Shown here piece after piece: positions 3,434 through 19,801 of a DNA stretch of 32,000 nt. Source of the stretch: Candidatus Saccharimonadota bacterium (lineage in GTDB: Bacteria > Patescibacteriota > Gracilibacteria > BD1-5 > UBA6164). The stretch covers positions 1,050,001 to 1,082,000 of the forward strand of contig OZ245768.1 in assembly GCA_965227835.1 (NCBI GenBank), written 5' to 3'. The notes beneath the pieces are model-generated. The model was not told the DNA's origin, did no database searches, and saw nothing but the letters and a program-made list of their open reading frames with translations. Positions within the stretch are counted from its first letter, which is position 1. The number at the start of each line of letters is the position of its first letter. The position numbers and the translations under genes were made by a program.

Positions 3434-4541
3434 CTATTTTTTGTTAAATTATAGCCATTTTTATATATAATTTAGGATTTTAGACGCAATCCACCTAAGG
3501 AAACTAATCTAAACTATTGGGACTTCCTCTAAAACAACTAATCTTTTGAGATTAAAAGATATAGCTTCCATAAATGCAGTAAACTGATTTTTTACTACAG
3601 ACTTATACCTCACTCTATGATTCATTTTTGAAAATACCCTCTCATAAGGAGATCTAAGTTTAGAATAAAACTTATCTTTATCCTTGTTCTTATCTTTCAT
3701 ATTATTTTTCTTTATTGCACATAGATGTAATCACTTCTTTTTTGTTGATATTACAGCCGGTCAAATACAATATCACTTATCAGCATATACTGCTCATGAA
3801 CTTGGTAATACATGCTTCATTCACTTTGCATCTGTTACATTAGCTTGAGTTATAGCTATCTTGTTTATCATTCAAGATTGCATATCAACACTAGTATGTT
3901 TTTTATATCCATACCAAAATTTATTTTTTCATTTAGATCAAATTTTAGCTTCCTTATCATTAGCAACTTTTGGAAGAGTTTCATTATTCATTTTTTCATA
4001 TCATTCTTTTATTCATTTATCTCTTTCTTCCCATAAATTAGCTTTAGTAACTAAATGAGAAGCATCTACAAATGTAAACACTTCACTCATATACCCCTTA
4101 TTTGATAATTGATTTTTTAAATCTTCAAATATCTTTGATAGTTCATTTGTTCATATCTTTTTTCTTGCTCTTGAGAATATACTATAATCTGGAGTTTTAT
4201 CTGTTAATTTAAATCAGCAAAACCATTTACCAGCTAGATTTTCTGCAAGATATTTCTCTAACTCTCTATCTGATAAATCTTCCATAAACTGGATTAGTAA
4301 ACATAGAAATAATTTTTTTACTCAATATCATACATGAGTTTTTCATAGATCTATATTTTTTAGTATTTTATTTACTCAATCAAAGTTCCACAATTTCTTA
4401 AATTTACGATATTGATGATTTTCTGGAATTAGCTCGTTTAGGATAACAAAACTTATTTGATTTGATTCTCACATAGGTATTTTCTTAGAATATAATTACT
4501 ATCTAATTATATCTCTTTTTTCTCTTTTTAATAGTCAAAGT
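3434..4541 (-). mobile_element. IS5-family insertion sequence; ends not determined, so the interval is the maximal intergenic-bounded span
   Basis: Single DDE transposase gene between two intact unrelated genes. Only a weak AT-rich inverted match was seen (about 3463-3478 versus 4501-4514), so the boundaries are uncertain. Confidence 0.45.
3509..4474 (-). CDS. IS5/IS4-superfamily DDE transposase, 321 aa
   Basis: ATG 4474-4472, TAG 3511-3509. N-terminal InsH/DUF772-like LCLLIQFMEDLSDRELEKYLAENLAGKWFCGF..TPDYSIFSRARKKIG. DDE signatures VDASHL, AVYADKGY and RSPYERVFSKMN..RVRYKS. About 17 of about 20 Gly codons are TGA. Confidence 0.85.
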
Positions 4542-5669: not shown

Positions 5670-5693
5670 GCAAGGGGTCAAGACCCCTTGTCT
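5670..5693. repeat. 24-nt palindromic element gcaaggggtcaagaccccttgtct (copy 1 of 2); possible terminator hairpin after hsdR
   Basis: Perfect 9-bp stem caaggggtc/gaccccttg with a 2-nt loop, 3 nt from the hsdR stop. An identical 24-mer is present at 26959-26982. Confidence 0.8.
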
Positions 5694-5695
5694 TT

Positions 5696-8600
5696 TTAAT
5701 TGTATGATTCTTTTTTTGATATATCAAAAAATCTCTCAAAAAAATTATTGAGTTTATCGATAACTGATTCTTTTTTTTGTGTTCTTGCATTGTCTTTTGA
5801 AAAACGGGAAATTGGTGGTAGGATTTCTGCTATTTGTGTTCATGTTTTTTGTATGTATCCATCTCTGAAAGCATTTTCTATGAAAGTATAGGTTTTTTCT
5901 TGATCAAGGTTTTCACTTTTGATGATTTTTTCTAGTTCTTCTCTTTTCTTTTCTTCTACAAATTTCATCCAATCTTCATCAACGGATGAATACATATCAA
6001 GTGACTCAATAAACTGATCTATCAGATCTTTTTTATTACGAAGCTCAATACTTGCATTGATTGCTTTGTTAATATCAATTAAAATTTCTTTATCTTTGGT
6101 ATTGTTTAGATGATATTTTTTTATGAGCTCAATAATATAATCAATATTAATTTCTATTTGTTTTATGAGTTCCATTTCAAAAACGAGATCATCGTTTATA
6201 TTTTCTTTTTCCCCTTTTTCTCATTTTCTAAATTGAGTATAAAGGTCTATGTATAAACCATGATAGTCTTGCAAATTTCTTTCCGTTAAAATTTGTTTGT
6301 CATGAAACTCATCAAATGTTTTTAAAATATTGAGAAGTTTTAAGACTCAACTATAGAGTTTCACGAATTCTTTTTGTTTGCTTTCTGAGATTATTGGTTC
6401 TCAGAGTGGGAATTGGTGTTTTAATTCGGATATTAATTTTTTGTATCATTTGATTTCTTTCTCTTCATCCATATATCCGTTGTAGTAATCTTCAAAATCT
6501 TTTAAAAGCACCATACCACTTGCATTTTTATCACCAAAAAGAGAAATAGCATCGTCTGTAGCTTTTTCTAGTTTTCTAAAACATATGACATTTCCAAAGG
6601 TTTTGATACTGTTTAGTATACGATTTGTTCTTGAAAAAGCTTGAATAAGTCCATGGTGTTTTAGGTTTTTGTCTACCCATAGGGTATTGAGAGTTTTTGC
6701 ATCAAATCAAGTTAAAAACATATTTACGACTATAAGTATGTCTATTTCTCTATCTTTTACCCTCTGACTGACATCTTTATAATAATTTTGAAATTTATCT
6801 GAGCTGGTATCATAAGATGTGCCAAACATTTCGTTGTAATCTCAAATTGCACTTTCTAAAAAGTCTCTGGATGTCTTGTCTAGGTTACTTGTGTCTTCTA
6901 GATTTTCAGATGTAGTACCATCTAATTCTTCTTCATTTGTAGCATAGCTAAATATGGTAGCTATTTTCAATTTTTTATCACTTGGAAGTCAATCCATTTG
7001 TTTTTTAAACTCTTCATAGTAGATCTTTGCCATTGAGATAGAAGAAACTGCAAATAGAGAGTTGAATCCTGCGAGTCTTTTTTCATCGAGTTTGTAAAAA
7101 CTGTTTCTTTTGGTTTTTTGATCAAAGTGTTCGAGGATGTATGCAACAATATTTGAAATTCTTTTGCTTGAAGATAGAGCTTTTTCTCTGTCAATATCTG
7201 TAATAGATTTGTCTTCTATATTTTCTTGTTTCTTAAATGTAGAGATATAGTCGAGTTTAAATGGTAGCACATTTTTATCAGCAATAGCATCAACAATAGT
7301 GTATGTGTGAAGTTTTTCTCAAAATGCTTGTTTTGTAGTTTTTAGGTCTAGGTGTTTTCAGGATGATGAGTTTATAGCAAATATGGGTGTTCAGGTAAAA
7401 CCAAAGAGATAGTACTTTTTAAATGCTTCGGTAATTGATTTATGCATATCACCAAATTGCGAGCGATGGCATTCATCAAATATCAATACGATTTCTCCAT
7501 CAAATATAGAGTGTCATTTGTTTTTTTTGATAAATGTATCGAGTTTTTGAATCGTTGTGATGATAATTTTTGCTTTTGGATTTTCTAATTGTTTTTGGAG
7601 CTTAGCCGTACTCGTATTACTATTCGCTGCTCATTTTTCAAATTTCTCATATTCTTTCATGGTTTGATAATCCAAGTCTTTTCTATCAACTACGAATAAT
7701 ACTTTTTTTATATGTGGTAGTTTACTGGCTATTTGTGCTGTTTTGAAACTTGTAAGTGTTTTTCATGAACCTGTCGTATGCCATATATATCAGCCTGCTT
7801 CTATGCTCCCATATTTTTTATGGTTTGAGCTTGTTTGTATTTTTTCAATTATTTTTTCGGTGGCTATGATTTGGTATGGTCTCATCACTAAGAGTTGTCT
7901 TTGGGAGTCAAAGACACAGTATTTGGTCAGGGTTTTTAAGAGTGTGTTTTTAGCAAAAAATGTTTTGGTGAAATCAACTAGATCAGTAATTGGTTTGTTT
8001 GTATAATCAGCCCACCAGCTGGTAAACTCAAAACTGTTACTTGTTTTTTTTGATTTTACGGATTGTTTTTTTGTTTGTTCTTTTACATGTGAGTATCGAG
8101 TTGTATTGCTATAATATTTTGTGTGTGTTCCGTTTGAGATGACAAATAGTTGGATGTATTCAAAGAGTCCACTATCTGCCCAAAAGCTTTCTCTTGAATA
8201 TCTGTTTATTTGATTAAATGCTTCTCTTATGGCTACTCATCTTCTTTTGAGCTCTACATGTACTAGCGGGAATCCATTTACGAGTATTGTTACATCATAA
8301 CGGTTTGCTCTTGTTCATGTATCTGTTTTGTATTGGTTTATGACTTGTAGGTGGTTTTTGTGGATGTCTTTTTTATCTAGCAAGTAGATATTTTTAGTTT
8401 CTCAGTTATCACGAGTTAAGATTTTTATGTAGTCTTCTTGGATTGTGGCTGTTTTGTCTTCTATGTTTTGGTTTGGGTTTGATATTTCGGTTTTGAAAAA
8501 GGTGTTCCATTCATTGTCACTAAAAGTGTAGTTGTTGAGTTTTTCTAGGTTGTTTTTTAGGTTTTTTACCAAATCATCATTGTTACTAATATTTATATAT

Positions 8601-8752
8601 TGGTATTCTTGGGACTCTAGTTGTTTTATAAACTCTTTTTCAAGTTCATCTTCGCTTTGATAGTTTTCTGCTTTTTTTGCAGATGGTGTGTATTTTGATA
8701 ATATGGTTGGTTGAGTTTTTGGAGTGTTTGGGTTTATATTTTCGTTTGTCAT
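5696..8752 (-). CDS. hsdR: type I restriction enzyme R subunit, 1018 aa
   Basis: ATG 8752-8750, 14 nt after the hsdS stop. TAA 5698-5696. Motif I TTGSGKT (Gly = TGA 7763-7765), motif [13 protein letters not shown]-terminus [14 protein letters not shown]...[13 protein letters not shown] typical of HsdR. Track fragments 8402-8809, 6989-7270 and 5840-6175 share one frame. Confidence 0.95.
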
Positions 8753-8765
8753 GATGATGTATAAT

Positions 8766-10139
8766 TTAGTAATATTTATAAGCAATTGTATAGTTGGGGA
8801 GTCTGGCAATAATTCCGTATTTTACGGCTTTTTCTATTTTTTTTGATAGTCTATATCTTTTTGATTTTCCTTGGTATTTTAGTGGTACTCCCATTGGGAC
8901 AGTTGGAGCATTATTGTCGGGAGTGTAGTTTGAATTTTCTGAGTTTTTACTTTCAGGGGGATTGATATTTTTAAAACTCAAAAGCTTTTCTCTATAGTAC
9001 TCATATTGTTTTCTTCTGGCTTCTATTTCAGCTGGGAGACCTATGGATATATCGTTTACGAGGGCATCAAATGTATCAAGTATTTTTACTATCTCCTGCT
9101 GTCTTTCTAAATCAGGTTTTCAGTTTTTGTATGGGATAGGCATAGTAAAACTCGAATACTGCTTAGCATTAATGTTTGGTTGTGATCATGTACTCTTATT
9201 TTTTTCTACAAATGTATTATAATAAGTAGTCTTAGTATAGTGATATACAAAACTAGATAATACTTGAGTGTTATCTGCAATGAAACGAATCAAATAACCA
9301 GCGAATATTGATTTTCAATAACTGCTAACATACCTGCATGTTTTTCATACGGTAGCACCACTACGGGCAAATAGTATATCTCATTGGTTTAAAAGATATT
9401 TATCTTCATAATAGCTAGGTGATTTTCCTTTATTATTCAACAATCCATCATCTGATATATCTGTTATTCTAACATACCTAACATCCCCATCAAATTCTAC
9501 TGCAGATGCTCAAGATCAATACTCTAGAGGTTTCACAGTAAGACTTCACAATTCCTTCCACTCAACCTCCTCATCTTCAAAACTCAACAACTCATCCCTA
9601 TAATACTCATACTGCTTCTTCCTCGCTTCTAGCTCCGCTTCTAGCTCCGCTTCTAGCTGGGTGAATGTATCAAGTATTTTGACTATTTCTTGTTGTACTG
9701 GAAGGGGTGGGATGGGGATTTGGATTTTTTCAACATCTTTTGTATAAACATGAGGAACCCCACCTCCCTTTTTGAGGTCGTGAATTTTATACTGAATACT
9801 CAAAAGAAAATGATAAATAAACTTGATAGATATATCACTTTTCGCTTTGATTGAGAATGCATCTGAAACATAAATTGGCTTATTCCAATACATCACAAAA
9901 CCAGCATAAGCACCAGAACCAGCAACCGTAATAGTTTCTCCGATTCTATTACTTTTATTATGGAAATAAGCAGGTTTTTGTCCTCAAGCAATAACAGGTA
10001 TTCCCCCAACAATAATATCTTTCTTTGTAATCGATTGACCTCTTTTTAGTTCACAAACCTCCCCAAACTCTTTAAACTCCACCCCATCTGGACACAGCTC
10101 TTCAATAAGTTTTTCAATACTTGTTTGATTGTTACTCAT
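8766..10139 (-). CDS. hsdS: type I restriction enzyme S (specificity) subunit, 457 aa, with an extra 68-aa C-terminal tail
   Basis: ATG 10139-10137, TAA 8768-8766. Two target-recognition halves, each followed by a conserved helix: [39 protein letters not shown] and [36 protein letters not shown]. 9 in-frame TGA. Confidence 0.9.
9624..9659. repeat. 12-bp tandem repeat x3 (cgcttctagctc) inside the hsdS central conserved region
   Basis: Units at 9624-9635, 9636-9647 and 9648-9659 (last base differs). Encodes (LEAE)x3 on the minus strand. Confidence 0.9.
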
Positions 10140-10159
10140 AGTTTTATTTTCTTATTTTT

Positions 10160-10636
10160 TTATGAACTTTTTTCTGTAAATCCTTCAAAGAATCCAAATA
10201 GCTTTTCACTACTACGAATATCTCGTATACGATCAAGAAGCTCTTTCCAATAATTCCTTCATCATATTCACTTCAATTTTTCATCATCCATCGTAAAACC
10301 TTTGATCATATATTTTTTGAGTCTTTGAGTTGCCCATTGACGGAAATGAGTTCATTGAAGAGAACGAACTCTATATCCTACGGATATTATAACATCGAGA
10401 TTATAATAATTTGTGAGTTTTTGCTGAAATTCGGAATTTCCGAATTTCTGTAATGTTTCACTTTCTAACAATTCTCATTCACTATAAATATTTTTTATAT
10501 GTTCATTTATTGTGGATTTTGCTTTACCAAAAAGAGCACTCATTTGATCTTGTGTTAGCCAGACTGTTTCGTTATCTAACTCCACCTGAAGTTTCAAATC
10601 TCAGTCATTTCATTTATATATAATTATTTCACTCAT
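10160..10636 (-). CDS. RhuM-family protein, N-terminal half only (158 aa; truncated relative to the roughly 330-aa family norm as I recall it)
   Basis: ATG 10636-10634, TAA 10162-10160. IIIYKGNDGDLKLQVELDNETVWLTQDQMSALFGK...YNLDVIISVGYRVRSLQGTHFRQWATQRLKKYMIKGFTMDDEKLKG..RIRDIRSSEK matches the RhuM N-terminal region. The ORF ends soon after DIRSSE. 7 of 13 Gly codons are TGA. Confidence 0.8.
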
Positions 10637-10654
10637 ACTCTTATTTTTAAAATA

Positions 10655-12904
10655 CTAAGCTCTTTCTATCTCTCCAACGTTCTGATTGCATAGGTCACAA
10701 ATTTTTGAATATAAATTTTTCAATTCATCTATTCCCATATCTAAAATAGGTTCATACATAAAAGAATTGAGATGAATATTCTCGGGAGTCATAATATTAA
10801 CGCTCTCCAACGTTCTGATTGCATTGGTGTGTAATTCGTATTCTTTAAATTCATCTTTATATCTTTGAAAGAGTTTTCCTGTTTGATTTCCAATAATTTC
10901 TTTTTTTTCAGTAACTTGCCACCACATGTATTGTTCTGCCTTTAGTCTAATTGCTATTGCGAGAATTATTTTATTTTCAAGATTAAAATCTGTGTCAGAA
11001 ATGTCATTGGCTATTTCTTCTATCTTAGAAAATACAATATCACTATCCCCAATAGATGAATCAAAATCATCTTTGTCTAAATACTGTTTATAAACTTTCT
11101 TTAAATGCCCAAAGTTTACTTTTTCTGTTCCAGACTTTTTGTGCAAAAGTTTCGTTAGCAGGTCAAAGTCCCCACTTGCCCAATCAAGCCCACTTACATT
11201 GTGATCAACTCCATATTCAATTAAGTTTCTCACAAAAGGGACAAGCGCAATTATATGCTTTATTGCATCTGCACTTGAATAATTTTTATCATAATATATG
11301 CCAACTGACATGCATTCTTTCCACGTTTTAAATGGTGCATTTTGGTATACCTCTTGGTTGAGTATTATCTCATCCTTATTTTTCATAGCATGAAGTCTGT
11401 TTTTTCGCTTAGTATTTAGTCGACTGCAAATTGTGCGATAAAAATCAAAGTTATGGGTGAAAATAATTGAATAAAAGCTTTCTTCTTTAGACAAATCACT
11501 TAGATATTCCACAATCGCATACTTATTCTTATAATCAAAAGAATCGGCAATATCGTCGATAATAAATAGTGTTTCTTTATCCTGTAATTTTCTAGATTTA
11601 ATTCCAAAAATGACATTCAAAAGATAAAAAGCTCTCTTTTCTCCTTGGCTTAGTATATTTTCAACCATATCTTGCCTATCAATAGTTTTTCCCATATATG
11701 AAAACTCTAGTGTTGGAGTTTCGTTTTTGAGCACAGCATCTGGTATATTTTTGATATGCATTTCAAATGGCATATCAACAAATCTGTTTTTGAACTCTGC
11801 AATGGCATCTTGCCATGCTCCTTTATTTTTATTTGCTTCATCTATTAGCTTTTTTAGCTCATCTTTTTTACTGTTGTAAGATTTAATTAATTCTTCAACT
11901 CCTGGCTGTATTTCCTTCAAAAAAGAATACCAAACAACTTTCCTAAACCCTTCGTAGTCCTTGAGTCGAGTGAGTAGTTCTGGATTTTTGTTAATAGCTA
12001 TTTTTAATCTTCGCAATTCCTTATTTCCGTCCAATGCTTTGTCTAATTTATCAAATGTCTTTTTTAAATCAGGGTTAGAAAAAATGCTTGAAATTTCTTT
12101 TTCGATAGTTTCTTCTAACTTACTTTGATTAGTAATTGATTCTCTATCATTTAATGATAGACCATGCCCAACAGAGAAATATTCTCCACCTTCTAGGCTC
12201 TTGTTAAGAGATTTTGCTTCAGCTGTTCCAAATGTGGTTCCATCCTTAGTGCTAAAAAAACTAGACTTTTCAATAAGGCTTTTATATTGCTGAAAATATT
12301 CTTCCAAAGTTTCCGAGTGATTTTCTAAAAATCCTTTAACTTTTCCATTTGCGTCAAAAACATCATTATATGCAAATTCAAATTTTTCTTTAGAGGCTTT
12401 TATTGATTCAATAATTCCCTCTAAAATCTCATAAATATTTTCCTTTTTTAGGTCAGCAAATGCTCCAAGAATTTCTTCTCCAAAATTTGAACTTCCAGAA
12501 ATCTTTTTTAGACCAGAGAAAGCCTTTGCTTTCTCGCCTTCAATCTCCTTATATATTTTTAAGTAGCGTTCTCTTTGGTTATCATCTGCTAGCAATATCA
12601 AAATATTTTTTTCAGAGTCTAGGACTTTTTCGTTATATGGCTCAATTACACAAAATTGCTTAGGATCTATTTTTGTGCCTTGTTCACTATCAATCAAAAA
12701 ATTATATTGAGATTCTAAATCAGGATTGACTTGATCACAGGGGTTTTTCCCATCAAATAAGGTTTTAGCTGTTTTAGCAAAAGACGTTTTCATCACCCCG
12801 TTTGGAGCATAGATCACAAAGGTTTTGCACTCTGAAAAATCAAACTCATGCTCAAGTTTTTTTATTCCATAACAATGCTCTAGTTCAATTTTTAACTTTT
12901 TCAC
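10655..12904 (-). CDS. PrrC/RloC-like ABC-type (AAA_13-like) ATPase with a long coiled-coil insert and a C-terminal putative anticodon-nuclease/HEPN-like region, 749 aa
   Basis: Uninterrupted ORF even under the standard code; GTG start 12904, TAG 10657-10655. Walker A-like VIYAPNGVMKTSF, ABC signature-like LSQGEKRAFY, Walker B LFIIDDIADSFD, H-loop IIFTHNFDFY. Then VPFVRNLIEY...LLHKKSG, an R-N-L-x-E...H pattern like the PrrC triad context as I recall it. Sits between hsdM and hsdS. Confidence 0.75.
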   Translation of the reverse strand: MKKLKIELEHCYGIKKLEHEFDFSECKTFVIYAPNGVMKTSFAKTAKTLFDGKNPCDQVNPDLESQYNFLIDSEQGTKIDPKQFCVIEPYNEKVLDSEKNILILLADDNQRERYLKIYKEIEGEKAKAFSGLKKISGSSNFGEEILGAFADLKKENIYEILEGIIESIKASKEKFEFAYNDVFDANGKVKGFLENHSETLEEYFQQYKSLIEKSSFFSTKDGTTFGTAEAKSLNKSLEGGEYFSVGHGLSLNDRESITNQSKLEETIEKEISSIFSNPDLKKTFDKLDKALDGNKELRRLKIAINKNPELLTRLKDYEGFRKVVWYSFLKEIQPGVEELIKSYNSKKDELKKLIDEANKNKGAWQDAIAEFKNRFVDMPFEMHIKNIPDAVLKNETPTLEFSYMGKTIDRQDMVENILSQGEKRAFYLLNVIFGIKSRKLQDKETLFIIDDIADSFDYKNKYAIVEYLSDLSKEESFYSIIFTHNFDFYRTICSRLNTKRKNRLHAMKNKDEIILNQEVYQNAPFKTWKECMSVGIYYDKNYSSADAIKHIIALVPFVRNLIEYGVDHNVSGLDWASGDFDLLTKLLHKKSGTEKVNFGHLKKVYKQYLDKDDFDSSIGDSDIVFSKIEEIANDISDTDFNLENKIILAIAIRLKAEQYMWWQVTEKKEIIGNQTGKLFQRYKDEFKEYELHTNAIRTLESVNIMTPENIHLNSFMYEPILDMGIDELKNLYSKICDLCNQNVGEIERA

Positions 12905-12922
12905 TTAGTTAGTAATAAAAAA

Positions 12923-13234
12923 TTAAGAATATATACCCCAATCTCTCGGTACATCCCAATCATATGGAGGATCCCAACTTATATAATCAGCTGGATCAAA
13001 ATGTTCATCTAAGATCTCTATATTTATAATATCTTCGCTCTTTGCTGACGAGGGATGCCCTGTTTCAATGTGCCAAGACCAATATCTCTTTATATTATCT
13101 TTAAATTTTTTTCAAACAGCATAATCATGGGGAATACATTTTCTTTCAATTATACCCTTTTCTTTGGAATTTCTTTCCATTAAGATAACTTTTTTTTCCT
13201 TGATTGCTTGTAAAAATTTGTCATGATTTGTCAT
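12923..13234 (-). CDS. hypothetical protein, 103 aa (orf103), between hsdM and the ATPase gene
   Basis: ATG 13234-13232, TAA 12925-12923, one in-frame TGA. Sequence MTNHDKFLQAIKEKKVILMERNSKEKGIIERKCIPHDYAVGKKFKDNIKRYWSWHIETGHP...WDVPRDWGIYS. Its stop is 18 nt upstream of the ATPase start. Confidence 0.6.
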
Positions 13235-13270
13235 AGTTTATTGTAGTTAAATTATAAAATATATACTAAA

Positions 13271-14818
13271 TTACTTAGCTTCTATCTCTGCAACTATCTC
13301 ATCTATTGATGACCTGAGAACACTCTGCTTTTCTACGATTTCTGCTATATCTTTATTGAGTTTTACTATATCAATAACTTCTCTTGTATCTTCCTGCTCC
13401 ACATAACTAGAAACAGCTATATTATAATCATTTGATTCTATTTCTGAGTTTTCTACAAGCCTAGAAATATAGTCTTTATCTTCCCTTTTTGTAAAACAAT
13501 CAAGTATATTTTTGATATTGTTTTCACTGAGTTTATTTTTGTTTCATCATCTAGTGCATTCATTTGTCGCATCAATAAAAAGAGTTTTGTTGTCTTTTTT
13601 AGATTTCTTTAAAACAATTATACAAGTAGCAATTGGGGTTCAGAAGAATAAATCAGATGGTAGCTGAATAACACTATCTATATAATTGTTATCAACTAAA
13701 TATTTTCTGATCTTTTGTTCTGCTCATCATCTATATAAAACTCATGGAAACTCTACTATAGCACAAGTCCCCGTCGTAGAAAGAAAAGACAACATATGCA
13801 TAGTAAAAGCTAGATCAGCCTTACTCTTTGGAGCAAGTACTCATGCTGGAGAAAAACGGGGATCATTTATCAAAATAGGACTAGAATCTCATTCCCATTT
13901 AATTGAATAAGGAGGGTTTGAAACAATTGCATCAAAAGGTCCACTATCCCAGTGATTGGGCTCTAAGAGAGTATCTCCATGAGTGATATCAAATTTCTCG
14001 TAGCTAATATCATGGAGAAACATATTGATACGACAAAGGTTGTAGGTAGTGAGATTTATTTCTTGTCAATAAAATCCCTGTCTTACATTTTCTTTTCATA
14101 GAACTTTAGCAAATTTTAGAAGTAAAGAACCAGAACCACAACACGGATCATATACTTTGTCTACTTCTTTTTTTCAAACAGTAGTTATTTTAGCCAAAAG
14201 TTCACTTACTTCTTGGGGAGTAAAAAACTCTCATCAAGATTTACCTGCATTTGAAGCATACATCGTCATGAGATACTCATAAGCATCTCCAAAAGCATCA
14301 ATACTATTATCAGCATAATTCCCTAGTTTTAAGTCTGCTATTGCTTCTAATAAGTCTGTAAGTTTTTTATTTCTTTGTTCTACTGTTGCACCGAGTTTAT
14401 TTGAGTTTACATCTAAATCATCAAATAATCCTTTTATATCATCTTCACTATCCGTCCCGCTTGCTGAAGCTTCTATATTTTTAAAAATTTGTGAAAGTGT
14501 TTCGTTTAAATTGGGATCATTTTTAGCTTTTTTCAAAACATTTACAAAAAGTTCACTTGGTAATATATAAAAACCTTTTTCTTTTACTGTTTCATCTCTT
14601 CAATATTCAGCATCATCATCAGATAGTTTTGCATAATCAAAATCAAACTCATCTTCGTCTTCATTTATGTATTTTATAAGATTTTCACTTATAAAACGAT
14701 AAAAAAGCATCCCTAAAACATATTGTTTAAAATCCCAACCATCAACACTTCCTCTAAGTTGGTTTGCTATCTGCCAAATAGATTTATGCAGCTCTGCTCT
14801 TTCTTGTTCTTTTGTCAT
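13271..14818 (-). CDS. hsdM: type I restriction enzyme M subunit (N6-adenine DNA methyltransferase), 515 aa
   Basis: ATG 14818-14816, TAA 13273-13271. HsdM N-terminal domain [36 protein letters not shown], AdoMet motif [12 protein letters not shown], catalytic [13 protein letters not shown]. About 13 in-frame TGA. Track fragments 14600-14818 and 14234-14536 are in the same frame. Confidence 0.95.
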
Positions 14819-18568: not shown

Positions 18569-19801
18569 TTAATTTTTAGATTTTTTGTAAGGGAAGGTAT
18601 CACTATATATACATCAACAATAATTTTGTCTGTATATATTGTGCTTCTTAGTGTATTCTACACTTCTCCCAAAACCTCCATTTTTCCTAAAAGCTATTTT
18701 TAAAAACTCAAGATTATCCTTCTCAATATTGGGATTATTCTCCTGCAAATTAGATATACTATATTTATCTCACAGTTTAAACATTTTTTCTAAATCTTTG
18801 TGAGGAGAAGTATTTAGTGTGGAAGTCCAGTATTTTATTCAAAGCTTTCTTGCTTCCAAAGCTGATCTTCTAAGTCTCATATCATAACATTTCTCACATT
18901 TTTCTCATCTTTCAGGAGTATGCTCTAAACCTTTTATTTCTTTAAAAAAATTAACTACATCATATTCTCATTTTATATATGATACTCCCTCAATTTTACA
19001 AACTTTCACAAACTCTTCATATCTTTTTTCATATTCTTTTTTTGGTTGTATGTTTGGATCATACCAAAAACAAACAACTTCAAATTTATCTTTTAAATCC
19101 ATTATAGGCACAGTAGCATCAGGTCAGCAACATATATGAAGTAATAGTTTTTCTTTTTTTTCTAAAGCTTCTTTCACAGGTTTATATGATAATCTATGAA
19201 TTCAAACTATATCTCTTTTATTAGATAAACTTTCTTTATGTTTTTTAGTTCAATATCATTTATGGTTTTCTATTCAAAGATTTGGGTATAGACTTGAATA
19301 TGTAGTTAGTAGCTTATCTCTAAATACTTTGGCAACAATTGAAGCTGCACTTATTTCTTTTATTTTGCTATCTCCAGATATTACATAGATAGGTTTTTTC
19401 TCTAATTCTTCAAATTCATAGTTATCATTTCAATCTATAAAAACTCAAGATATATATTCTGCTTGCCCATTTTCACTAAATTCTGGCTTTATTTTTCTCA
19501 ATAGTTCTACAAGTGATCTCCTCATAGCTTCTTTGTTAGCTTGTTTTACATTTATTTCGTCAATTAAGTAATTGTCTACAATTCAAACACCAAAAAAAAC
19601 TTTTGGATTTTTTAAACTAGACATTTTTATTATTTCTTTATATAGACTTTCTCTTTGAGTTTTTGATAGCTTTTTAGAATCATTTAATTTCTCCAAAAAA
19701 TCATTTTGTGGTAGATTTGATGGATTGAAGGCAAGACTACAAGCTACAATTCATCAAAGCCAAGGTCATCTTCATGCTTCATCTATTCATATTTTATACA
19801 T
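18569..19801 (-). CDS. fusion protein: RNase HII (N-terminal) + epoxyqueuosine reductase QueH/DUF208 (C-terminal), 410 aa
   Basis: ATG 19801-19799, TAA 18571-18569. N-terminal MYKIGIDEAGRGPWLGGIVA...DSKKLS...[22 protein letters not shown]...GYGT = RNase HII. C-terminal LLLHICCGPDATVP...[13 protein letters not shown]...[18 protein letters not shown]...STLNTSPHK...YRQNYCGCIYS = QueH. One continuous frame. Confidence 0.85.

Follow-up and report, generated by a model that had tools for sequence, protein, structure and literature searches.

In a 32,000-nucleotide (nt) stretch of a Candidatus Saccharimonadota genome (assembly GCA_965227835.1, contig OZ245768.1, positions 1,050,001 to 1,082,000; hereafter the window), an operon for a type I restriction-modification (RM) system on the minus strand carries, between the methyltransferase gene hsdM and the specificity gene hsdS, an additional gene for an ABC-type ATPase of 749 amino acids (aa) (10655..12904, minus strand, GTG start, no in-frame TGA). 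Judged by its match to a PADLOC profile (hidden Markov model PDLC05023; E 3e-227, 754.7 bits, residues 1-738 against profile positions 1-718 of 719), this protein is a full-length member of PDC-S46, a catalogued candidate family, so that the claim of the original prediction, made from the letters of this DNA alone, that the combination seen here matches no described system does not hold. We consider it reasonably probable that this PDC-S46 copy is a single-polypeptide candidate defence protein residing in a type IC-like hsd operon, in which a head acting as a nucleoside triphosphate (NTP) switch would be joined to an effector C-terminal domain and which would work autonomously.

The definition of PADLOC candidates of this kind (PDCs) rests on genes that lie within BREX, DISARM or type I RM systems, and of nine Hma-embedded candidates (HECs) tested under the same guilt-by-embedding approach seven gave defence (Payne et al. 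2024, bioRxiv 10.1101/2024.01.29.577857). The gene in the window, lying between hsdM and hsdS, is embedded in just this manner. The family is large: its homologues form more than 7,000 clusters at E<=1e-3, nearly all of 730-750 aa (about 735 aa), and were found in at least 568 species genomes including Patescibacteria, Bacteroidota, Pseudomonadota, Cyanobacteria, Bacillota and one metagenome-assembled genome of Micrarchaeota, as well as on 27 plasmids, while phage genomes are nearly devoid of them (one metagenomic "phage" record). Existing annotations of these homologues read "hypothetical protein", "AAA family ATPase" or "phage infection protein". By sequence the window protein is no different from the rest of PDC-S46; what is particular here is the host, which uses genetic code 25, the presence of a rare small gene (orf103) upstream, and the recent import of both genes.

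The anatomy of the ATPase was read from alignments of 48 and 84 PDC-S46 relatives and from an AlphaFold model of the whole protein (pLDDT, the predicted score in the local distance difference test, 83). An N-terminal lobe (aa 1-95; 12620..12904, minus strand), with beta-strands between residues 3 and 87 of the model, contains the deviant Walker A sequence APNGVMKT (aa 33-40), and a C-terminal lobe (aa 377-500; 11405..11776, minus strand), delimited by the alignments and by hhalign, carries LSQGEKR, the Walker B/D-loop FIIDDIADSFDYKNKY and the H-loop THN. The four strings VIYAPNGVMKT, LSQGEK, FIIDD and IIFTHNFDFY, regions to which the original prediction had rightly drawn attention, are by their sequence those of an ABC ATPase: Walker A, signature, Walker B/D-loop and H-loop. 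Residues N35, G36, M38 and K39 of Walker A are invariant among the 48 sequences, and S419, G421, E422, R424, D450, D451 and H484 are invariant or nearly so. The replacement of the glycine before the Walker A lysine (NGVMKT), already pointed out from the single sequence, is thus real and, with an invariant methionine, a trait of the family and not a local quirk. In searches of the whole protein against Pfam, NCBIfam and PDB sequences the C-lobe gave sub-threshold matches to RecF, ABC and SMC_N, and Foldseek aligned the model with the heads of SMC, Rad50 and RecN (E 2e-6 to 1e-4) and also with chain 9e8z_C of retron Ec83 and with AriA. Motifs and head fold together place the protein in the ABC/SMC-type ATPase superfamily.

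Between the two lobes lies a helical insert (aa ~96-376; 11777..12619, minus strand). By the secondary structure of the AlphaFold model it measures ~285 aa (aa about 92-375) and is made up of many helices of 10-27 residues, which does not agree with the coiled-coil-like insert of ~370 aa first proposed. No cysteine occurs between residues 86 and 491 of the ATPase and hence there is no CxxC zinc hook, as the original prediction had stated.

The C-terminal domain, the putative effector (aa 501-749; 10658..11404, minus strand), was defined from conservation among the 84 sequences and from a separate model (pLDDT 85). It comprises ~250 aa, with two beta-hairpins followed by an all-alpha part (aa ~501-749) in the AlphaFold model; the region after the ATPase is one domain and not, as had been suggested, a nuclease-like region trailed by about 160 aa, and the terminal CDLC that had been singled out belongs to an unconserved tail, a 91%-identical homologue ending in CQLS. 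Conserved in this domain are R559-x3-E563...H588, N560, K645 and R653-x3-E657, with E563 kept in 70-90% and E657 in at least 90% of the sequences and R653 and H711 invariant. The strongest motif of the whole protein, TPENIHLNSFMYEPxxD (aa 706-722), falls in a loop of low confidence in both models, and the motif TPENIHLNSFMYEP is unique to PDC-S46 when compared with the related family PDC-S06. A profile of the domain retrieved 1,220 representatives from a library of 1.84 billion proteins, and the best 150 of these 1,220 show one and the same architecture or fragments of it. Against every open reading frame (ORF) of the fetched loci it gave a single match, to PDC-S06 at 10.9 bits. The HepT toxin 6m6w_B ranked only 38th (probability 0.14) when the domain was compared by Foldseek with the PDB, and no conserved Rx4-6H motif was found in the 84 sequences, divergent HEPN domains being hard to detect.

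The original prediction had seen in this protein an ATPase resembling PrrC or RloC, and had named a missing AAA_13 profile match, a C-terminal fold unrelated to HEPN or anticodon nucleases (ACNases), and homologues mostly unlinked to hsd genes as outcomes that would speak against it. This is largely what was found. The Pfam family AAA_13 (PF13166), which we take to include PrrC, had no match to the window ATPase at E<=0.01, and the sole near-match among 48 relatives scored 32.1 bits at a cut-off of 36 and covered profile positions 499-600 of 713, that is, the ATPase C-lobe only. The model of the C-terminal domain had no significant structural match, and ~84% of the homologues are not in hsd loci. 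PADLOC, which according to the legend of Fig. 6C in Payne et al. 2024 detects PrrC, reported at E<=10 no PrrC or RloC match for the window ATPase, only PDC-S46 and weakly PDC-S06. The protein is thus not a member of the PrrC/RloC family, but its layout is similar and it may work like one.

As far as profile comparison can tell, the protein is truly, if remotely, related to the AAA_13 clade by way of PDC-S06: hhalign of PDC-S46 against PDC-S06 gave a probability of 94% (E 9e-8) for an alignment that begins at the insert's end, spans the ATPase C-lobe and reaches ~100 residues into the C-terminal domain, pairing R559/E563/H588 with R550/E554/H571. Members of PDC-S06 (e.g., P0279 of locus L091) share with the window protein the D-loop DDxxSSFDKNKKY, an R-x3-E...LxxLxH motif, a length of ~700 aa and a place adjacent to RM genes, and can follow an orf103 homologue; they differ in having a canonical GxNGxGKS P-loop, an invariant CPYC and a score above the AAA_13 threshold (62.6 bits), and over the C-terminal ~130 aa. 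The likeness to ACNases centres on the catalytic triad, R-x3-E-x31-H in PrrC and R-x3-E-x36-52-H in RloC (PMC2610378). Two candidate triads can be drawn in the C-terminal domain, R559-x3-E563-x24-H588 and R653-x3-E657-x53-H711, both suggestive and both outside the published spacing of x31-52.

Compared with the known proteins themselves, the window ATPase shares with PrrC an ABC-ATPase N-domain followed by a helical C-domain, a location inside a type IC hsd operon, a signature of the form R-x3-E...His and the presumed role of a second line behind restriction. PrrC, however, has 396 aa, no large insert, a canonical P-loop and a triad spacing of x31, its gene lies between hsdS and hsdR instead of between hsdM and hsdS, and it is almost always hsd-embedded, whereas PDC-S46 mostly is not. 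RloC is closer in size class (658-897 aa), in having an ABC head split by a long insert of helices and, at the C-terminus, a further helical domain, and in its only occasional linkage to RM, sometimes with RhuM/Doc genes, but its antiparallel coiled coil bears a CxxC zinc hook where the window protein has a Cys-free bundle of short helices, and its triad spacing is x36-52 as against x24 (or x53 for R653/E657/H711). With AriA of PARIS, PtuA of Septu and retrons, GajA and LmuB the window protein has in common a similar ABC head with helical inserts (Foldseek 8v46_C, 9e8z_C) and the general logic of sensor plus effector; the effectors of those systems are Toprim, HNH or other known nucleases, whether separate or fused, unlike the effector domain here, which has no recognisable fold.

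How PDC-S46 is wired into genomes was surveyed in 80 species loci. Eight of them contain the same hsd subfamily as the window (HsdM 73-78% identical, all with the standard code) with the ATPase gene between hsdM and hsdS in the order hsdM-ATPase-hsdS-hsdR, three of the eight reading hsdM-rhuM-ATPase-hsdS; five further loci belong to distant type I systems, with the gene lying between their hsdM and hsdR, which brings the type I total to 13 of 80. Among the two genes upstream we counted N6_Mtase in 14 proteins, N6_N4_Mtase in five, a C5 methylase in three and several of Eco57I/MmeI type, and among the two genes downstream Methylase_S in 10, HsdR domains in five to seven and Mrr-nSTAND3 in four. 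RhuM adjoins the ATPase in seven of the 80 loci, and single look-ups revealed PDC-S46 genes 7 nt behind HpaII and DpnII type II RM operons. Overall ~16% of homologues are hsd-embedded and a further 15% or so come after other RM genes, so that about a third are linked to RM, the remainder not being RM-adjacent. Of the RM-coupled module originally envisaged, the recurrence of the family in or next to RM systems therefore stands, but not a tie to hsd loci, outside which ~84% of homologues are found. That many copies are not next to RM genes argues against an obligatory silencing by one particular Hsd enzyme, and since most relatives lie outside hsd operons the ATPase is probably autonomous. On the Providencia plasmid pPROV188-1 (locus L095, NZ_CP097292.1 125740-127926) a homologue is found near umuD, a short HsdM-like fragment, an antirestriction gene and tra genes; this neighbourhood resembles a conjugative leading region, and by its gene content a role in plasmid establishment and not in host defence is a possibility for that copy.

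The history of the window copy also bears on its coupling to the resident Hsd enzyme. When the window is read with translation table 11, the hsd genes break into short ORFs, and reading TGA as a sense codon restores intact genes on the minus strand. In alignments with standard-code homologues (64-78% identical), 13 of the 14 in-frame TGA codons of hsdM and 12 of the 18 of hsdR coincide with an invariant glycine, so that the host can be said to use code 25; on these alignments we regard TGA as glycine as proven, which bears out the assumption made at the outset. Yet in the ATPase gene none of the 36 glycine codons is TGA, as against a TGA share of 61% in the other genes of the window and of 43% in hsdM, hsdS, hsdR and rhuM (chance of 0/36 about 1e-15 and 2e-9, respectively). 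A cassette of orf103 and 98% of the ATPase gene (10698..13246, minus strand), leaving out the last 43 nt of the latter, is 93.7% identical in DNA over 2,552 nt to positions 9656-12207 of locus L001, from a genome (L001/L002) of 44-45% GC in which TGA is a stop and the cassette has rpsB and an AAA_15 gene on its two sides and is not part of an hsd operon; in both hosts the cassette has ~31% GC. The lack of TGA in the ATPase and the identity to a standard-code copy thus speak for a recent transfer across genetic codes, and on the strength of codon use and identity orf103 and the ATPase gene are shown to have been recently imported from a donor using the standard code, the hsd island that received them being older and partly ameliorated. 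Codon 41 of orf103, TGA in the window and GGG in L001, indicates an amelioration of the cassette that would be just beginning.

Because of this recent arrival, and because the nearest relative (91% aa identity) lies outside an hsd operon, co-adaptation with the resident Hsd proteins is unlikely, and a functional coupling of the ATPase to this particular enzyme is doubtful. A displacement of some resident, hsd-embedded ATPase by the incoming cassette is neither supported nor excluded: the ATPase is 45-61% identical where HsdM is 73-83% identical, and since it generally diverges much faster than HsdM, its 45-54% identity to hsd-linked ATPases is uninformative on this point.

From these observations, and arguing by analogy from ABC-ATPase defence proteins such as PrrC and RloC, the most likely function of PDC-S46 would be that of an autonomous, NTP-switched defence effector which is often co-transferred and co-expressed with RM systems. 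The ABC head with its helical insert would serve as an NTP-dependent sensor or switch, triggered by a phage factor, by DNA ends or by the loss of RM function, and the C-terminal domain would be the effector, most plausibly with a metal-independent RNase-like activity relying on the conserved Arg, Glu and His residues; by the same analogy an RNase-type C-terminal domain is plausible. The outcome could be growth arrest or abortive infection, forming a second line behind restriction. Embedding among RM genes would then provide mainly co-transfer and co-expression and not an obligatory silencing by Hsd, and orf103 would be an optional accessory gene and no core component.

Several points weigh against this proposal. 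A literature search for PDC-S46 or a renamed equivalent found no mention, and no member of the family has been experimentally tested. The C-terminal domain matched neither HEPN nor any nuclease in Pfam, NCBIfam and PDB sequences, and its best Foldseek hits (E 0.6 in the PDB, E 0.9 in BFVD) are not significant; aligned on its own with PDC-S06 by hhalign, it reached a probability of only 10% (E 0.003). The R-E-H spacing of x24 lies outside the PrrC/RloC range, and the Gly-to-Met exchange in Walker A and the DD Walker B make NTP hydrolysis by the protein uncertain. Finally, some plasmid copies are located in transfer or leading-region contexts, beside genes of a type IV secretion system (T4SS) or an antirestriction gene, from which an anti-defence or plasmid-maintenance role is conceivable.

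The closest reading to the one originally offered, that the ATPase is an anticodon nuclease of the PrrC/RloC type, held silent by association with HsdMSR and freed when a phage anti-restriction factor inhibits the enzyme, appears distinctly unlikely to us, although the parallels are several. The protein is encoded within an hsd operon of IC-like type, and EcoprrI is likewise type Ic (PMC1484252); the protein's ABC motifs include an AAA_13-like D-loop (DDxxxSFDxKNKY) and hhalign links it at 94% to a family of the AAA_13 clade; its R-x3-E...H signature resembles the ACNase triad (PMC2610378); PrrC/RloC-like ABC-HEPN proteins have been described in the context of hsd operons and RhuM (Anantharaman et al. 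2013, PMC3710099), a linkage that recurs here; and the unit hsdM-ATPase-hsdS-hsdR has been kept in eight other genomes. Yet all 48 relatives remain below the AAA_13 gathering score, with the one near-match confined to the ATPase lobe, and to the absence of PrrC/RloC matches in PADLOC, of a CxxC motif, and of an HEPN fold match or Rx4-6H motif in the C-terminal domain are added the many homologues behind type II RM genes or away from RM altogether and the recent acquisition of this copy, whose nearest relative lies between rpsB and the AAA_15 gene. What is retained of a PrrC/RloC-like embedded ATPase is thus the layout, the hsd and RhuM context and the remote AAA_13 connection; family membership and a demonstrated coupling to Hsd are not.

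The small gene preceding the ATPase, orf103 (12923..13234, minus strand, 103 aa, one TGA at codon 41), had been taken for a dedicated companion, and it would be quite improbable, in our estimate, that the two form an obligate two-component module in which orf103, as sensor/adaptor or antitoxin, controls the effector ATPase. The gene itself is, by comparison of homologue clusters and of the L001 copy, real and conserved: although it has no match in Pfam, NCBIfam or PADLOC, its homologues form 11 clusters of 102-107 aa among 5.8 billion proteins, and the window and L001 proteins are 91% identical, with nine synonymous and nine non-synonymous codon changes, apparently under purifying selection, and the TGA aligned to GGG. 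For an obligate pair speak the 18-nt gap on the same strand, the joint movement of both genes between genomes, and the occurrence of orf103 homologues next to PDC-S46 in locus L074 and ahead of the ABC ATPase PDC-S06 in L091-L093. But orf103 is missing from 79 of the 80 species loci and its 11 clusters stand against the ATPase's more than 7,000; the L074 homologue is placed downstream, with another ORF in between, and in L087-L090 orf103 precedes a module without an ABC protein, the two-gene candidate PDC-M43A/B, so that "dedicated" is not an apt description. In L091-L093 (6001-8446 in L091), from a TGA-recoded genome, the homologue (76% identical) is directly upstream of PDC-S06 beside an AlwI RM system, and in L087-L090 (6001-8086) it is found (47% identical) directly upstream of PDC-M43A/B between a Dam-type methylase and MmeI.

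We consider it very improbable that PDC-S46 has no immunity function at all and is instead an SMC/RecN-like DNA maintenance protein or selfish or anti-defence mobile cargo hitch-hiking with RM genes in variable islands, since, even though its best structural matches are SMC, Rad50 and RecN heads, it occurs on 27 plasmids (one copy beside T4SS genes, one in a leading-region-like setting next to an antirestriction gene), and the hsd island here is compositionally foreign with an IS5-like transposase nearby, the family is joined in tight same-strand operonic fusions (0-15 nt) to methyltransferase and restriction endonuclease genes of many unrelated RM types, shows the patchy distribution and fast sequence evolution typical of defence genes, was picked as a defence candidate by embedding, and is nearly absent from phage genomes.

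Going beyond the autonomous effector favoured above, it is tempting to speculate, although we hold it to be unlikely as a whole, that PDC-S46 is a third, structurally distinct branch of restriction-linked ABC-ATPase ribotoxins beside PrrC and RloC. On this view the protein would be an RNase under NTP gating, its P-loop marked by the invariant Gly-to-Met exchange, its helical sensor insert lacking a hook and its effector fold being new; R559/E563/H588 and/or the invariant TPENIHLNSFMYEP loop would make up the catalytic centre. The role of orf103 would then be that of a promiscuous small adaptor or regulator plugging at least three unrelated modules (PDC-S46, PDC-S06 and PDC-M43) into RM neighbours, and the TGA-free cassette would be able to shuttle between standard-code and code-25 hosts.

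With TGA read as sense, the operon as a whole has the minus-strand order hsdM, orf103, ATPase gene, rhuM fragment, hsdS and hsdR, with intergenic gaps, from hsdM to hsdR, of 36, 18, 18, 20 and 13 nt; this confirms the single operon recognised by the original prediction, with gaps of 13-36 nt in place of 14-36. The product of hsdM (13271..14818, minus strand, 515 aa) contains the Pfam domains N6_Mtase (2.8e-113) and HsdM_N (1.5e-19). HsdS (8766..10139, minus strand, 457 aa) matches Methylase_S (4.5e-44) in two stretches corresponding to two target recognition domains, and HsdR (5696..8752, minus strand, 1018 aa from the ATG at 8752) contains HSDR_N, SWI2_SNF2/ResIII, a T1R_D3-like domain and EcoR124_C (2.7e-65), the last of which makes the system type IC-like. 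With HsdM, a two-domain HsdS and an EcoR124-type HsdR C-terminus all present, the RM system is by its Pfam domains type I and of an IC-like family. HsdS has an unusual C-terminal extension of ~63 aa (approx. 8766-8960), filling ~200 nt between the hsdS core and the start of hsdR; six close homologues lack it, all ending 3-6 aa past LLTFK, and it showed no similarity to anything in the fetched loci.

The rhuM fragment (10160..10636, minus strand, 158 aa, seven TGA) represents the N-terminal half of the gene only, in line with the truncation first noted: it matches Pfam Virulence_RhuM (8.5e-36) at positions 11-94 of 252 and PADLOC PDC-S05 at positions 6-153 of 330, and full-length RhuM of ~340 aa is present in L016-L018. 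It keeps the N-terminal ~147 homologous residues of the usual ~330-340 aa and ends 20 nt before hsdS; by this comparison the C-terminal half has been deleted, and its seven TGA codons mark it as an old resident gene. The hsd island (about 6-15 kb) has 29-35% GC as against 21-27% in its flanks and is compositionally foreign, and two genes beyond hsdR an IS5-like DDE transposase (DUF772 + DDE_Tnp_1) is encoded at window positions 3509-4474; GC contrast and transposase are consistent with a mobile origin of the island. Directly past the hsdR stop a GC-rich hairpin at 5670..5691 (GCAAGGGGTC...GACCCCTTGT), picked up by pattern match in a scan for terminator-like sites, has a 9-bp stem with five GC pairs in surroundings of ~25% GC and is a possible operon terminator, the T-run following the stem on the plus strand only. 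The promoter and terminator scan as such returned 48 sites where 47 are expected by chance and is uninformative in such AT-rich DNA. Elsewhere in the window (18569-19801) a single ORF of 410 aa joins RNase HII (aa 4-208) to the epoxyqueuosine reductase QueH (aa 219-401), an unusual fusion.

PDC-S46 is not an undescribed system, being already catalogued, and its specific interpretation in terms of PrrC and RloC is only loosely supported. It is, however, widespread, strongly conserved and repeatedly wired into RM operons while lacking a recognisable effector fold, and its function could reveal new effector chemistry as well as the control of RM-embedded defence genes. The orf103-ATPase cassette, finally, is a clean case from nature in which defence genes have passed from one genetic code to another, and its transfer bears on how recoded Patescibacteria acquire immunity genes.

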